A DNA stretch of 64,000 nucleotides from Candidatus Omnitrophota bacterium (GCA_050250375.1 JBFWOS010000001.1:702361-766360); one strand, 5' to 3'; counted from the first letter of the stretch, positions 7,216 to 11,894 are shown. Numbers and translations: made by a program. Notes: generated by a model not told the origin, from the sequence alone.

Positions 7216-7269
7216 AAAAAGGTGACGGACACCGTTTTTATATTGAAAAACGGTGTCCGTCACCTTTTT
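7216..7269 (-). terminator. Rho-independent terminator, bidirectional-capable hairpin
   Basis: Perfect inverted repeat AAAAAGGTGACGGACACCGTTTTT-atattg-AAAAACGGTGTCCGTCACCTTTTT. It lies directly after the methyltransferase stop at 7272 and is flanked by U-runs on the transcribed strand. Confidence 0.75.
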
Positions 7270-7271
7270 CT

Positions 7272-8351
7272 TTATTTCCTCACAATGTAATAATAATTGA
7301 GCGGATCGTGGTCCAGTTCCTTGATGTCGACCGAAGTAAACCCCGCTTCCTTCATCAGCGTCGTGGCCAGTTCCTTCCCCCACATGGCCCCGAGCCCTTC
7401 TCCGCCCTGGGCCAAAGACACACTCATGCAATGCGTGCAGGAAATGGTGTAAATGAACGGGGCCAGCGGATGGTCCAGGTTCTTTTCCACGTGGCTGGAC
7501 CCTTTGATGTCCTGGCAGAAATACGTGCCGTCTGGTTTAAGCGCGCGGTGGATGTTGGCGAGCATCTTGCGCGGTTTGGCCTGGTCGTGCACCGAATCAA
7601 AAGTGAAAATGACGTCGAACGTTTCTTTGTCATTAAACGCGGCGGCGTCCTGGACGGCAAAATCGATATTGCGTAATCCTTCCTCATGCGCCGCGGCCCT
7701 GGCTTTGGCAACAGCCTCGGCCGAAAAGTCGTAACCGGTAAACCGGCTTCTGGGGAAAGCCCGGGCCATCGCGATGAGCGCGCGCCCGCTGCCACAGCCG
7801 ACATCCAGCACCCGGATGCCTGACTCCAGCTGTTCCTTGAGACCATCGACCAACGGAAGGAGTTTTTCAACCAGCGGCGACACCACGGACTGATAACTTT
7901 CTTCGGCCATGACCTCGTGAAAACGGTTGTATTCCTCGTAACGCAGTCCGCCGCCTTTCTGAAAACTCTCCACGATGCGGTCCTCGACGTACGCCATGAC
8001 ATGGATCCACTGCGCGGTCACCGCGATGTTGTTGGGCGCGTTCCCGCGCGTCAGCCACGCCGCGTGCTCCGCCGGCAGGACGTACGTCTTCTTGACGGGA
8101 TCGTAATCCACGATGCGGCCCGTGACCATGGCCCCGAGCCATTCCCGCACATAACGCTCCTGAAGCCCGGCGGCATCGGCGATCTGTTGACTGGTAGACG
8201 GCGTAAGTTTCGCCATCGTGTCAAAGAGCCCGGTGCGGTAACCGATGCTGATCATCAGCCCCACGGCGCTCTGGTTGAGGATGCCGACACAGCGTTCGGC
8301 AAACGCGTCTTTTTTGGATGGATCGATTACGACTTGACAACTGTTACACAT
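7272..8351 (-). CDS. Class I SAM-dependent methyltransferase with an N-terminal winged-helix dimerisation domain
   Basis: VLDVGCGSG motif. AAGGAG lies 6 nt upstream of the ATG of MCNSCQ..., so the track N-terminal extension up to 8435 is 5-prime UTR. GC-rich relative to its neighbours. Confidence 0.8.
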   Translation of the reverse strand: MCNSCQVVIDPSKKDAFAERCVGILNQSAVGLMISIGYRTGLFDTMAKLTPSTSQQIADAAGLQERYVREWLGAMVTGRIVDYDPVKKTYVLPAEHAAWLTRGNAPNNIAVTAQWIHVMAYVEDRIVESFQKGGGLRYEEYNRFHEVMAEESYQSVVSPLVEKLLPLVDGLKEQLESGIRVLDVGCGSGRALIAMARAFPRSRFTGYDFSAEAVAKARAAAHEEGLRNIDFAVQDAAAFNDKETFDVIFTFDSVHDQAKPRKMLANIHRALKPDGTYFCQDIKGSSHVEKNLDHPLAPFIYTISCTHCMSVSLAQGGEGLGAMWGKELATTLMKEAGFTSVDIKELDHDPLNYYYIVRK

Positions 8352-8501
8352 AACATGCTCCTTTCTCAGGCGCGGCCCCGCTTCCGGGACGGCCCTAATT
8401 CCGTTTGTGGTTATCGGTTTGTTCCTGAAAAACATACAGGGTGTTTAAGGTTAAGATGGTGAATAATTCGGTCATGGTTTTCCTCCGTTTATCGTTTGAA
8501 T

Positions 8502-8657
8502 CTAAACTTCAATCCAATGGGTTCCGGGCATAGGCGCTGCAGACTTAAAAAGGTCTGCGGTGATCTCCACCCCGGGAAATTTTTCCGCCACCAGGTCATT
8601 AAAAGCGTCGATGTCAAAATAGGTTTTGTCTTCAATCCGGTAAAATATACGTTTCAT
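8502..8657 (-). CDS. Small hypothetical protein of 51 aa (start chosen at the internal Met with a GAGGAA SD)
   Basis: The track ORF 8502..8726 contains the TetR-type operator palindrome in its 5-prime part, so I chose the downstream start MKRIFYRIEDK. Confidence 0.3.
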   Translation of the reverse strand: MKRIFYRIEDKTYFDIDAFNDLVAEKFPGVEITADLFKSAAPMPGTHWIEV

Positions 8658-8674: not shown

Positions 8675-8690
8675 GACCGACCAGTCGGTC
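8675..8690 (-). promoter_or_regulatory. TetR-type operator palindrome GACCGAC-CA-GTCGGTC, copy 2, downstream of tetR and upstream of the small ORF and methyltransferase
   Basis: 16-bp perfect palindrome. A near-identical copy sits in the tetR promoter at 9320-9334. Confidence 0.5.
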
Positions 8691-8709
8691 ACAACTGCCC
8701 AAAAAAATT

Positions 8710-9306
8710 TTATCCCTTTTCTCCAATCAATGGCCGGATCGCCCTGGCCGCCTGGTCATACGGCCACGGGTCCTGATAAATCTCCGCATTGGTTAGCGCC
8801 CCGATCTGGATCAACAGGTACTGGTCCGCGACAAAATCCGGGTCAAGTTCCTTGTATTTCGGGTCGGATTCGATCAGGTCGCGCACCATTTCCCTGATCA
8901 CACCGCGGTAGACCTCATAGTGGTGTTTGGCCTCCTTGCGGATAGGGCTTTTGCCGTCCGTGACCTCGGCCGCCATGTTCGAAAACGCGCACCCGCGGTA
9001 CTCCGTCGAGACCATCCAGTCCCGCATGATCGTGTTGAACCCGATGTACTTCTGGTAAGGGTCCTTGATCCGGCCGACCATTTCCCGCAGTTCATACATC
9101 TCTCTGGCGTGGCGGTTGCGCATGTACGCGGCGCCCAGTTCGTCTTTGGTGGCAAAATGGGTATAAAACGTCCCCTTGGACACCCCGGCCTCATCGATGA
9201 TCTGCTGGATGCCGGTGGCGTTGTAACCCTGCCGGTAAAAAAGGTCGGTGGCGGCTTCGAGGATCCTGTCTTTGGCTGTTCCTTTTATTTGGCTTGTCTT
9301 GTTCAT
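8710..9306 (-). CDS. TetR/AcrR-family transcriptional regulator
   Basis: N-terminal HTH ILEAATDLFYRQGYNATGIQQIIDEAGVSKGTFYTHF. 198 aa. Confidence 0.85.
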   Translation of the reverse strand: MNKTSQIKGTAKDRILEAATDLFYRQGYNATGIQQIIDEAGVSKGTFYTHFATKDELGAAYMRNRHAREMYELREMVGRIKDPYQKYIGFNTIMRDWMVSTEYRGCAFSNMAAEVTDGKSPIRKEAKHHYEVYRGVIREMVRDLIESDPKYKELDPDFVADQYLLIQIGALTNAEIYQDPWPYDQAARAIRPLIGEKG

Positions 9307-9309
9307 GCT

Positions 9310-9346
9310 CTAAATATACGACCGACTGGTCGGTTTGTCAAGGGGT
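9310..9346 (-). promoter_or_regulatory. Sigma70-like promoter (TTGACA-17-TATATT) whose spacer holds the palindrome ACCGAC-tg-GTCGGT; predicted autoregulated, near-leaderless tetR promoter
   Basis: Read on the minus strand: cTTGACAaaccgaccagtcggtcgTATATTtagagcATG. Confidence 0.55.
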
Positions 9347-9435
9347 ATTTTAAAAAACTTTGCGGGAGGCGCGGGACAGGACGTTTGTCGAACATGGATA
9401 ATGACCAACTGCCCTCTACCTTACCTTTTCCACAT

Positions 9436-9906
9436 CTATTTTTTCTTTATCCTCAAATGTTCCTCGGGACCAAATCTGTTAAAAATAGAATGATAAATAA
9501 CGCTTCCTGGCAATCGCCATTCATTATAAGGATAACCGTCTTTCCCAATCTTTGAAATTTTTGGTTCTCCAAATTCCTTTTCAAAATAGTCGTTGAATTC
9601 TTTAAATGATTTATCTAGATCAATATAAGAAGACCGAAAGAATTCCAACTCTTTTAGAAGGCCCTTTCTTCTTGGCTCAAAATGAAATCCTAAATTATGT
9701 TTAAGTCCACCCAATGATTCGCAATAACTTTTGGCATAATAACCTTCAGTGACATGATTAAGCGTCACTTTATTATTTTCAAATATTTCAACAAACAGAT
9801 CTTCTTTAATATTCCAAGGAATAAATAAACTTGGCTTATCTATCTGAAATCCATTTCTTATATCCATAACAACCTTAAAAGAGAAGGGGATTTGTGCCGG
9901 CCACAA
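9436..9906 (-). CDS. Hypothetical protein (AT-rich, no recognisable domain)
   Basis: 156-aa ORF in a low-GC segment. Confidence 0.45.
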   Translation of the reverse strand: MWPAQIPFSFKVVMDIRNGFQIDKPSLFIPWNIKEDLFVEIFENNKVTLNHVTEGYYAKSYCESLGGLKHNLGFHFEPRRKGLLKELEFFRSSYIDLDKSFKEFNDYFEKEFGEPKISKIGKDGYPYNEWRLPGSVIYHSIFNRFGPEEHLRIKKK

Positions 9907-9929
9907 AAAAACGTGCCAGTTTGTGCCAG

Positions 9930-10490
9930 CTATCTATTTTCTTCAATCCAATCATGCGCAAGCTTATTAATTCGTTTAATCTGTTCTGGGGTTAAGCTTC
10001 GCATGATTTGATCTCGTAAACCACGGGCTCTCCATTTGGCCTGCATATCTGAAGATAGCTGCGTGTAAAACCGAGCAATCTCGAGCCAGAAATATGCTTT
10101 TTCAAAAGATTGTTCAATATTATCGCCGTCTCCATACATTACTGCCAAATTAATCATTCCCCTTGGATCTCCGGCATTGGCAGCCTCTTTATATAGAGAT
10201 ATTGCTTTTTCATTATCTTCTGCAACACCTAAACCCAAGTCATACATATAGCCTAAGTTAGTTTTCGCATATGATAAGTCCTGATCCACAGCCTTTTGAT
10301 AATACATAACAGCCTTCTCATAATCTTGCGGAACACCATCTCCAAATTGATATCTGCTTCCCATATTATTTAACCCAGCACCTTCTCCCATCGCCGCTAA
10401 TTTTTGATCCTCAGATAAACTAGAAGCAGTCACAGTTGCGCAGCCACTTAGAAGTAAAGAAAAAATTAACAAATAAATTTGCTTGCTCAT
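9930..10490 (-). CDS. Sel1-repeat lipoprotein
   Basis: Lipobox LLLSGC. Tandem Sel1-like repeats (GVPQDYEKAVMYYQKAVDQ, GVAEDNEKAISLYKEAANAG). Confidence 0.75.
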   Translation of the reverse strand: MSKQIYLLIFSLLLSGCATVTASSLSEDQKLAAMGEGAGLNNMGSRYQFGDGVPQDYEKAVMYYQKAVDQDLSYAKTNLGYMYDLGLGVAEDNEKAISLYKEAANAGDPRGMINLAVMYGDGDNIEQSFEKAYFWLEIARFYTQLSSDMQAKWRARGLRDQIMRSLTPEQIKRINKLAHDWIEENR

Positions 10491-10557
10491 AATATTTTAT
10501 CCTACACTTATACGATGGACACACCGCTTAAGTAGTGGCATTACATTACTTAACTAC

Positions 10558-10697
10558 TGGTCAATCCCCTTCAACTTCAAAAAATCGCGGACGGTTTGGA
10601 CGACATAATCCATCTGGTTCAATTCAAGGTCCTGGTGGATGCCGATATGGGTGCCGCGGGCGGAGCAGTATTCGGCTTCCCGGGACGTACTTAATTA
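10558..10697 (-). pseudogene. Relic of the last ~43 codons of a DegT/ColD-family gene, a diverged copy of the 3-prime end of the gene at 12222..13475
   Basis: Translates to EAEYCSARGTHIGIHQDLELNQMDYVVQTVRDFLKLKGIDQ*. The intact gene ends EAEYCAGHGTHIGIHQDIELNQLDYVAQTVRDFLKAKGINR*. About 80 percent nt identity over ~140 bp. In frame directly behind the Fic stop codon. Confidence 0.6.
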
Positions 10698-11894
10698 TTG
10701 ATTCAGTCCGCTGTCCTCTTTTAATGAGTAACTCGTGCTGCGGCCGCCGGCCGGGTCCTTAACCAAAACACCTTTTCCAACAAGATCAAGAATGTCCCGA
10801 TGAGCGGTATCCTGCGAACACTTGGTGATTTTCGCCCATTTTGAAGTGGTCAGTTTACCCTCAAAACTGTCAAACAACTTGTTGATCATTGTCTTCTGGC
10901 GTTCGTTAATGGATCCAGCCGGAAGAGAATCCCAGAAGCGCACCTTTTTGAACACACCGGACAATGTGGTTTCGGTTGTGTCCAGCGCCCGGCCCAAACA
11001 ATTTAAAAACCACACCAGCCACGCCGTGATATCAATGCCGTCTTTTGCGGCATGGATACTTTTCTGTGTCTTTTCAAGAATATCGTAATAGGCATTCCGT
11101 TCCTGCCGGATATGGTTCGACATGCTGTAAAAACGCTCCCGGCTGCCGTCGGCGCGCGCCAGCTGCATATCGGCAATGGCCCGGGCTATACGGCCGTTGC
11201 CGTCATCAAAAGGGTGAAGCGTCACGAACCACAAATGCGCGATACCCGCCTTGAGCACGGGGTCCAAGTCCTTCGATCCACCTGTGGTGAGCGAAGGCCT
11301 TCGACCTTGCGCAGGCCGAGCCGAACCATTGAACCAAGCCAGAAATTCCTTCGTTTCACTCTTGAGGCGGCCGGCTTCCGGCGCTTCATAATGGACCTTC
11401 TCCCGGCCAACAGGACCGGACACAACTCGCATGGGGCCATGACGGTCGTCGCGCCAGGCGCCAACGGTAATTTTATGCATTCCACTGTGTCCGGTCGGAA
11501 ACAAACCGGCCTGCCAGCCAAACATTCGATCCTGGGTAAGGGGCTTGTCGAAATTCTGAGTGGCATCGAGCATCATTTCCACCACCCCGTCCACGTGACG
11601 ATCAGACGGCACAAGCCCTCCAATGTCCATACCCAGCCTTCGCGCGATGGATGAGCGCACTTTGGCCGGATCAAGGACCTCCCCCTCAATTTCACTGCTT
11701 TTTAAAACGTCAAGAGTGAGCGTCTGTAAAACGGCCTCCGAACGCAAAGAAAATCCCAGCGTTTCCATGCGTCCGATCAATCGCCCCTGCCGGTTGCGCA
11801 CGGGACCTAATATCGACGTGATTTTTTCATGATCCCATGTAAACGTCGGCCAAATATCTAATTCATGGATGTATTTCATCCCGGTTCCCTTCAT
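10695..11894 (-). CDS. Fic-family protein (DUF4172-type N-domain, Fic core, C-terminal winged helix)
   Basis: Canonical Fic motif HPFDDGNGRIARA. The true start is probably the second Met (MKYIHELD, 11879), which is preceded by AAGGGAA. Confidence 0.9.
   Translation of the reverse strand: MKGTGMKYIHELDIWPTFTWDHEKITSILGPVRNRQGRLIGRMETLGFSLRSEAVLQTLTLDVLKSSEIEGEVLDPAKVRSSIARRLGMDIGGLVPSDRHVDGVVEMMLDATQNFDKPLTQDRMFGWQAGLFPTGHSGMHKITVGAWRDDRHGPMRVVSGPVGREKVHYEAPEAGRLKSETKEFLAWFNGSARPAQGRRPSLTTGGSKDLDPVLKAGIAHLWFVTLHPFDDGNGRIARAIADMQLARADGSRERFYSMSNHIRQERNAYYDILEKTQKSIHAAKDGIDITAWLVWFLNCLGRALDTTETTLSGVFKKVRFWDSLPAGSINERQKTMINKLFDSFEGKLTTSKWAKITKCSQDTAHRDILDLVGKGVLVKDPAGGRSTSYSLKEDSGLNQ

Follow-up and report, generated by a model that had tools for sequence, protein, structure and literature searches.

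Two copies of one inverted repeat flanking a predicted leaderless tetR gene ahead of an Rv2258c-type methyltransferase gene in a Candidatus Omnitrophota bacterium

We analyzed a stretch of 64,000 nucleotides from Candidatus Omnitrophota bacterium (GCA_050250375.1, JBFWOS010000001.1:702361-766360), hereafter the window, with positions counted from its first letter. On its minus strand lie, in this order, a tetR gene, two small open reading frames (ORF1 and ORF2) and a methyltransferase gene, closed by a terminator hairpin, and one inverted repeat is present both in front of and behind tetR (Table 1). The hairpin at 7219-7266, a strong bidirectional terminator, lies between the methyltransferase gene and the heptosyltransferase gene.

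Table 1. Features of the tetR-methyltransferase unit, in window coordinates.
Feature	Position	Strand	Remarks
-35 hexamer TTGACA, tetR promoter	9336..9341	-	11/12 match; equivalent TTGAC[AC] in 18/22 relatives
Putative operator copy 2 (site a), ACCGAC-CA-GTCGGT on the minus strand	9321..9334	.	In the 17-bp promoter spacer; same place in relatives; PaaR dyad at the same position (PMC2770484)
-10 hexamer TATATT, tetR promoter	9313..9318	-	6 nt (TAGAGC) to the tetR ATG
tetR, 198 aa, TetR_C_13 subfamily, NemR/AcuR/YxaF-like	8710..9306	-	Assigned by Pfam and family profile
T7 run (U-tract in the tetR transcript)	8701..8707	-	Starts 2 nt behind the tetR stop; 11 nt separate it from the 14-bp core
Putative operator copy 1 (site b), GACCGAC-TG-GTCGGTC (16 bp) on the minus strand	8675..8690	.	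Between tetR and ORF1; kept in relatives; co-varies with site a and the recognition helix
ORF1, 51 aa, no family match	8502..8657	-	GAGGAA 6 nt before the ATG; the NCBI annotation has the 51-aa form
ORF2, 26-aa hydrophobic peptide (MTELFTILTLNTLYVFQEQ...)	8395..8475	-	Preceded by GGAGGAAAACC (strong Shine-Dalgarno); homologues in L083, L163, L165
SAM-dependent methyltransferase, 359 aa, Rv2258c-like winged-HTH and class I domain, N-terminal MCxxC	7272..8351	-	PF21320, 1e-38; 5f8c, E 3.7e-111
Perfect hairpin with 20-bp stem, T-runs on both strands	7219..7266	.	Bidirectional terminator, end of the unit

The repeat appears as GACCGACCAGTCGGTC (copy 1) and as ACCGACTGGTCGGT (copy 2), which have the dyad ACCGAC-NN-GTCGGT in common. 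The 14-bp cores are at 8676-8689 and 9321-9334, and the non-palindromic centre, CA or TG, places the two copies in inverted orientation. We counted exact occurrences of the dyad in the 64-kb window and in 100 dinucleotide-preserving shuffles of it, and obtained exactly two copies against 0.00 expected, which confirmed the claim of a preliminary description of this DNA that the same dyad occurs twice around tetR. Tolerating up to two mismatches brought four extra matches in the window, approximately the chance level. Additional regulon members were sought within the 64-kb window through a third exact site or the variant ACMGAC-NN-GTCKGT, and none was found elsewhere in it.

On the minus strand, copy 2 takes up the spacer, 17 bp long, of a promoter (TTGACA at 9341-9336, AACCGACCAGTCGGTCG, TATATT at 9318-9313) that matches the sigma-70 consensus at 11 of 12 positions, with an A/T-rich tract (9345-9358) at the UP-element position upstream of the -35. 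A dyad of 14-16 bp located in this way corresponds to a TetR-type operator, which is a dyad of some 15 bp that overlaps the promoter under its control. Since only 6 nt separate the -10 from the tetR ATG at 9306 and no Shine-Dalgarno sequence is present, the tetR mRNA must, as far as can be read from its promoter, be leaderless or nearly so. A sigma-70 scan of 22 relatives placed a -10 hexamer at +16, +19 or +20 from the start of the site-a operator in 18 of them, with scores of 8-11/12, and the distance from -10 to ATG was 5-8 nt in most relatives. Because this offset and this distance are conserved, a leaderless promoter with the operator embedded in it is a trait of the TetR family considered here. 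The preliminary description had placed copy 2 exactly in the promoter spacer and had called tetR near-leaderless, and both points hold. The encoded protein is a true TetR, matching TetR_N (PF00440) at 7e-17 and TetR_C_13 (PF16925) at 6.9e-10.

Behind tetR, copy 1 lies 20 nt past the stop codon (8710-8712) and 17 nt ahead of the ORF1 ATG (8657), in keeping with its earlier placement upstream of a small ORF and a winged-helix methyltransferase gene. The shorter start of ORF1 that had been favored was also the right one, as four homologues of 45-54 aa (L003, L083, L163 and L165) start at the equivalent ATG and have a Shine-Dalgarno sequence; the long TTG start, which would overlap tetR and put the operator inside the coding sequence, was discarded. 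These homologues were identified through synteny and share the motif MxR[IL]FY..[DN][KQ]x[YF][FL]D..A[FL] and a C-terminal [IV][EQ][VI]. A word-based search with ORF1 recovered ORF1 itself only, and no match was obtained for ORF1 in Pfam and NCBIfam or for ORF2 in Pfam. The ORF2 homologues (in L083, L163 and L165) are 42-43 aa long, hydrophobic and then charged, with the motif MxE[LI][LF]T[IL]; the ORF2 of the window is truncated.

The methyltransferase has the HTH_65 winged helix and class I SAM domain that define the Rv2258c-like class (PF21320, 1e-38), and it aligns over residues 15-359 with Rv2258c of M. tuberculosis (5f8c, E 3.7e-111), which has the same winged-HTH and class I architecture. 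The first codons of its gene (8337-8351, minus strand) encode Met-Cys-x-x-Cys, as they do in the relatives examined (MCNSCQ, MCSNCN, MCTQCN, MCTNCS), and this MCxxC motif falls outside the region aligned to Rv2258c. We know of no substrate for Rv2258c itself. An OsmC-like gene is often found beside the methyltransferase gene (L003, L083, L163, L165), and the MCxxC motif, the OsmC neighbors and the single cysteine of the TetR together hint at thiol or metal chemistry.

Related loci, about 35 in number and encoding TetR proteins of 21-74% identity, were collected by scanning genome and metagenome collections, by looking up contigs and by searching plasmids. The dyad was present in the tetR promoter (site a) of nearly all of them, and the two-site layout was found in approximately 30 loci from five phyla, Omnitrophota, Verrucomicrobiota, Planctomycetota, Cyanobacteriota and Alphaproteobacteria, with site b located 17-77 nt past the tetR stop. 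Loci with site b comprised the window, L003, L083, L084, L163, L164, L165, L169, L172, L173 and L174 (Omnitrophota-like), L004-L010, L086, L090 and L091 (Verrucomicrobiota), L196 (Aquisphaera, Planctomycetota), L195 (a Nostoc plasmid, Cyanobacteriota) and eight alphaproteobacterial loci.

At four of these loci (L169, L174, L195 and L196) both sites read ACAGAC-NN-GTCTGT, and the recognition helix of the TetR starts with K-A in exactly those four (4/4), versus K-G in all 12 of the ACCGAC-type proteins compared. The sites, their positions, their conservation and this covariation can be read directly. Because the sites and the recognition helix change together and the layout is conserved, the TetR whose gene they flank very probably uses both sites as operators, and the covariation constitutes the strongest in-silico support for binding of TetR to both copies.

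The genes behind tetR were compared in the same set. An Rv2258c-type methyltransferase gene follows tetR in 11 close relatives and is present in one more as a deletion remnant only. Where site b is present it comes with a T-run and usually also with ORF1 and ORF2. Three loci (L085, L166 and L167) have no site b and have the methyltransferase start 23-41 nt past tetR, so that in these three, co-transcription of the methyltransferase gene with tetR is unavoidable. Among more distant relatives, the genes that accompany tetR encode AhpD-like peroxidase-related proteins, alpha/beta hydrolases, PPOX flavoproteins, an HPP protein and MATE transporters, which together have a flavor of detoxification. 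At L084 (1386-1640), a relative with 68% identity, each operator has one mismatch, and all that is left of the methyltransferase gene is a C-terminal remnant of 19 codons (..LDHDIINYYYIMQK*) with a terminator behind it, for which reasons this locus is a decaying copy of the module.

From these sites we infer binding, repression, a mode of action at copy 1 and release by an inducer. With good though not full confidence, we propose that TetR binds both copies, represses its own gene and silences ORF1, ORF2 and the methyltransferase gene until it is released by an inducer. The 198-aa TetR (8710-9306) would, as a dimer, occupy both dyad copies; at copy 2 it would occlude RNA polymerase at the near-consensus promoter and so autoregulate the leaderless tetR mRNA, and at copy 1 it would prevent ORF1, ORF2 and the Rv2258c-type methyltransferase gene from being transcribed. 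An inducing signal, either a small molecule or a modification of Cys106, would free both sites, upon which expression of the whole unit would proceed up to the hairpin at 7219-7266. The TetR-controlled regulon of the preliminary description is thus supported by the approximately 30 loci with the two-site layout, by the covariation of site and helix and by the downstream genes that are kept. As a switch the unit is of an ordinary kind; what is unusual is how well its layout has been conserved.

How TetR would act at copy 1 depends on whether a promoter exists there. We scanned 20 loci for a sigma-70 promoter at site b and found no conserved one, with best scores of 5-9/12 at scattered positions, scored by E. 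coli rules that may not be those of these phyla. The candidate hexamers of the window at copy 1 (GCAGTT and TCTTTT) are very poor, conservation downstream of site b stays below 0.7 bit at every position in the 20 loci, and inspection of the T-run region by eye gave no sigma-54 or ECF-type reading that is conserved. TTGAGG-16-TATATT (8671-8644), considered as a copy-1 promoter in the window, was discarded; it lies inside ORF1 and arises from R-I-F-Y codons. In the alphaproteobacterial loci, the MATE gene starts about 12 nt past tetR and site b lies inside its first codons, and the lack of intergenic room at these loci speaks against a promoter at site b, although these sites could serve promoters that lie concealed within the final part of tetR. 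Since no conserved promoter is present at copy 1, bound TetR would most likely be a roadblock to read-through from the tetR promoter; it may also occlude a weak local promoter. Either way, TetR-dependent silencing of ORF1, ORF2 and the methyltransferase gene is predicted. The preliminary description had assumed a promoter near 8690 and had taken its absence as evidence against the proposal. That assumption is not borne out by the scan, and the absence does not refute TetR control, because bound TetR could block read-through.

Roadblocks of this kind have precedents in elongation blocked by C.Kpn2I (PMC6237814), in further cases reviewed elsewhere (PMC10310618) and in the trpRBA operon of Chlamydia, where an operator between the regulator gene and the downstream genes terminates read-through (PMC6504234). 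In the latter case, the YtgR operator of Chlamydia trachomatis trpR-trpBA both represses the downstream genes and terminates transcripts from the upstream promoter (PMC6504234). Like copy 1, the YtgR operator lies between a regulator gene and co-directional structural genes. Unlike the TetR of the window, YtgR is a DtxR-type iron regulator and is not the product of the upstream gene, and its operator is in a 348-bp intergenic region with a mapped internal promoter, for which a U-tract rule is not described.

It is possible, but in our view rather unlikely, that ORF1, ORF2 and the methyltransferase gene have a weak promoter of their own with copy 1 as its operator, repressed by occlusion as at copy 2. 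Such a promoter would have the T-run as an UP-like element (at about -44 to -38), the operator as its spacer and a -10 beginning from the last T of the operator. In its favor, L003 and L010 have a canonical hairpin terminator between tetR and site b and would need a local promoter, which may then exist at other loci as well. About half of the loci also have a -10-like TAnnnN hexamer at operator position 13-19 (such as TATAAT in L196, TATATT in L174 and CATAAT in L173), and the T-run would be at the proximal UP position, as A tracts are at the UP position of site a. Against this stand the lack of a consistent -35/-10 pair across the 20 loci, the poor hexamers of the window, the low conservation downstream of site b and the crowded alphaproteobacterial loci, all given above. 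Copy 1 could instead be read as the intrinsic terminator of tetR, a hairpin GACCGA-CUGG-UCGGUC followed by UUUUU whose likeness to copy 2 would be incidental, and a terminator scan does list it, with 6 pairs, a 4-nt loop, a TTTTTGAGGA tail and a fold of -8.4 kcal/mol. We rejected this reading as very improbable, given that the U-tail is not conserved (AUGGGAG in L083, UUAGAAG in L163 and AUUAAUA in L165, the hairpin with U5 being found in the window only) while the dyad tracks an untranscribed site: the 14 bases of copy 1 exactly match the operator in the promoter and vary together with site a and the recognition helix. The region moreover folds no better than its shuffles (z -1.22).

Identical operators on both sides of a gene, here at a fairly constant distance of 630-702 bp from site a to site b, also bring to mind DNA looping, which over the ~645 bp of the window would strengthen repression of the tetR promoter alone and leave the downstream genes unregulated. 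The distance, however, merely mirrors gene length, and it converts into 60.0 to 66.9 helical turns with scattered fractions. Site b is also lost exactly where the methyltransferase gene is directly behind tetR, which ties it to control of the downstream genes. To our knowledge, TetR dimers are not known to form DNA-looping tetramers. With no helical phasing to support it, we discarded looping as highly improbable.

The T-run upstream of site b bears on the mode of action as well. Across 20 loci, the frequency of T was 0.65-0.95 at positions -19 to -13 and 0.05 at positions -12 to -10 relative to site b. A run of 4-9 T ends 11-12 nt before site b in about 19 of the 23 non-alphaproteobacterial loci, from four phyla and including Nostoc and Aquisphaera (window, L083, L163-L165, L169, L173, L005-L009, L086, L090, L091, L195, L196). 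The bases between T-run and site b are not conserved, the T-run is absent where site b is absent, and most loci have no hairpin before it. Two explanations offer themselves, namely the UP-like element of a weak promoter just described or a U-tract for release of a stalled polymerase. The fixed gap of 11-12 nt, the unconserved bases within it and the lack of a conserved promoter led us to consider that the T-run and copy 1 act jointly as a terminator that depends on the repressor, an idea that we regard as speculative and improbable. With TetR at site b, polymerase that started at the tetR promoter would stall while its active site is on the U-tract, and the all-rU:dA hybrid would let the stalled complex dissociate without a hairpin, so that an inducer would open the promoter and remove the terminator simultaneously. 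Work with the EcoRI Q111 roadblock reportedly gave about 12-18 nt as the distance from the RNA 3' end to the front edge of the polymerase. We also scanned viral contigs for T5-N12-operator and obtained 18 matches, 15 of which were one repeated phage sequence and none of which had a TetR nearby. A family of phage contigs from IMG/VR (L175-L190) carries ACCGAC-[GT]G-GTCGGT within the same AT-rich surroundings (…tttttctttcACCGACGGGTCGGTataaatgtttttgacaag…), and the contig DNA examined contains no TetR-like gene.

The dyad ACCGAC-NN-GTCGGT is already known as the operator of PaaR. In Burkholderia cenocepacia, the TetR-type repressor PaaR (BCAL0210) requires ACCGACCGGTCGGT(T), located between the -35 and the -10, for repression, and mutation of either half relieves it (PMC2770484); PMC9493321 cites EMSA binding by PaaR and its release by phenylacetyl-CoA, and a related site has been predicted for Thermus PfmR (PMC7022988). 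The TetR of the window resembles PaaR in having the identical operator core between -35 and -10 and several copies of it per regulon. It differs in gene order, paaR coming second in its unit in Burkholderia and the tetR of the window being a leaderless first gene, and nothing at the window locus points to the PaaR effector, phenylacetyl-CoA. No paa genes were found in the operon or within +/-3.5 kb in at least 20 relatives, for which reason we do not class this TetR as PaaR; the likeness is one of operator sequence and position. In the plasmid collection, the TetRs matched in Burkholderia and Cupriavidus lacked the exact dyad and were not beside paa genes, those of Burkholderia being unrelated. 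At site a of L083 (1688-1709), L163, L164 and L168, the operator ACAGACCGGTCGGTCTGT consists of two overlapping dyads offset by 4 bp, the outer half-site being supplied by the -35 TTGACA, an arrangement that recalls the 'dual overlapping inverted repeat' of PaaR.

By sequence, the TetR of the window groups with NemR, AcuR and YxaF. Its best characterised match was E. coli NemR (4yze), found with a profile that had been built without NemR (E 2.4e-27, residues 3-194 against 4-197); homology extends over the full length at 18% identity. Both proteins have their repressor gene first, followed by the genes of the unit in the same direction (nemR-nemA-gloA in E. coli, where these are detoxification genes). 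In the nemR promoter of MG1655 (L171, 1990-2026), which has the same architecture as that of the window, the dyad TAGACCGACTGGTCTAC fills the 17 bp between TTGCAC and TACACT, and the ATG follows 7 nt after TACACT. By sequence, nemR thus looks leaderless too. There are also differences: Lys175 of NemR, the sulfenamide partner, and its Cys21 and Cys116 are not conserved, with Glu at the position of Lys175 and no cysteine besides Cys106; the NemR box, TAGACC-N4-GGTCTA, has another register; E. coli has no second operator after nemR; and the cargo is NemA and GloA in one case and, in the window and its relatives, the methyltransferase with or without OsmC in the other. Because these residues, the dyad register and the cargo all differ, we regard the TetR of the window as NemR-like in its presumed working and not as a NemR orthologue. 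Its only cysteine, Cys106, aligns with NemR Cys106, which has been implicated in reactive chlorine sensing (PMC7464077), and Gly105-Cys106 is invariant among 24 aligned TetR relatives. Thiol-based sensing by this TetR is a plausible hypothesis that we would stop short of calling likely, and the Gly-Cys motif may simply be structural in the subfamily.

AcuR offers a further comparison. In the acuR-acuI-dddL operon of Rhodobacter sphaeroides, acuR is reportedly the leaderless first gene of the operon that it controls, which is also the place of the tetR gene in its own operon in the window. AcuR has a single operator and acrylate/DMSP genes as its cargo, and in both respects it is unlike the TetR of the window. 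The NCBIfam AcuR model (NF051457) was the second-best family match (E 4.9e-15), and its 55.4 bits, far under the cut-off of 247, led us to reject an assignment as AcuR.

This analysis assigns a regulatory logic to an uncharacterised module, consisting of tetR, two conserved micro-ORFs, an Rv2258c-type methyltransferase gene and sometimes an OsmC gene, in the uncultured phylum Omnitrophota and in relatives of the locus. It links the validated PaaR operator to a much wider clade of NemR-like TetRs, in which the operator change together with the change of the helix from KG to KA provides a usable specificity rule for regulon prediction. As Rv2258c-family methyltransferases are without a known substrate, a cognate sensor would be a route to it. 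The spacing between T-run and operator is a testable lead for a terminator that is free of a hairpin and conditional on a repressor. The points of interest are therefore the conservation across phyla, the covariation of protein and operator, the two conserved micro-ORFs and the T-run spacing.

Two further observations concern the surroundings of these loci. L005, from Rubritalea profundi (Verrucomicrobiota), is nearly identical over the region to L006, a MAG contig labelled Thermodesulfobacteriota, which suggests a mis-binned contig. Directly upstream of the tetR promoter in the window is a low-GC island (9350-10650; 0.33-0.42, against about 0.55 in the flanks) for which horizontal acquisition is possible. 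A 156-aa ORF without a match to any family and a gene for a Sel1-repeat lipoprotein-like protein lie in it, and it is followed by a gene for a DUF4172-Fic protein (10695-11894).
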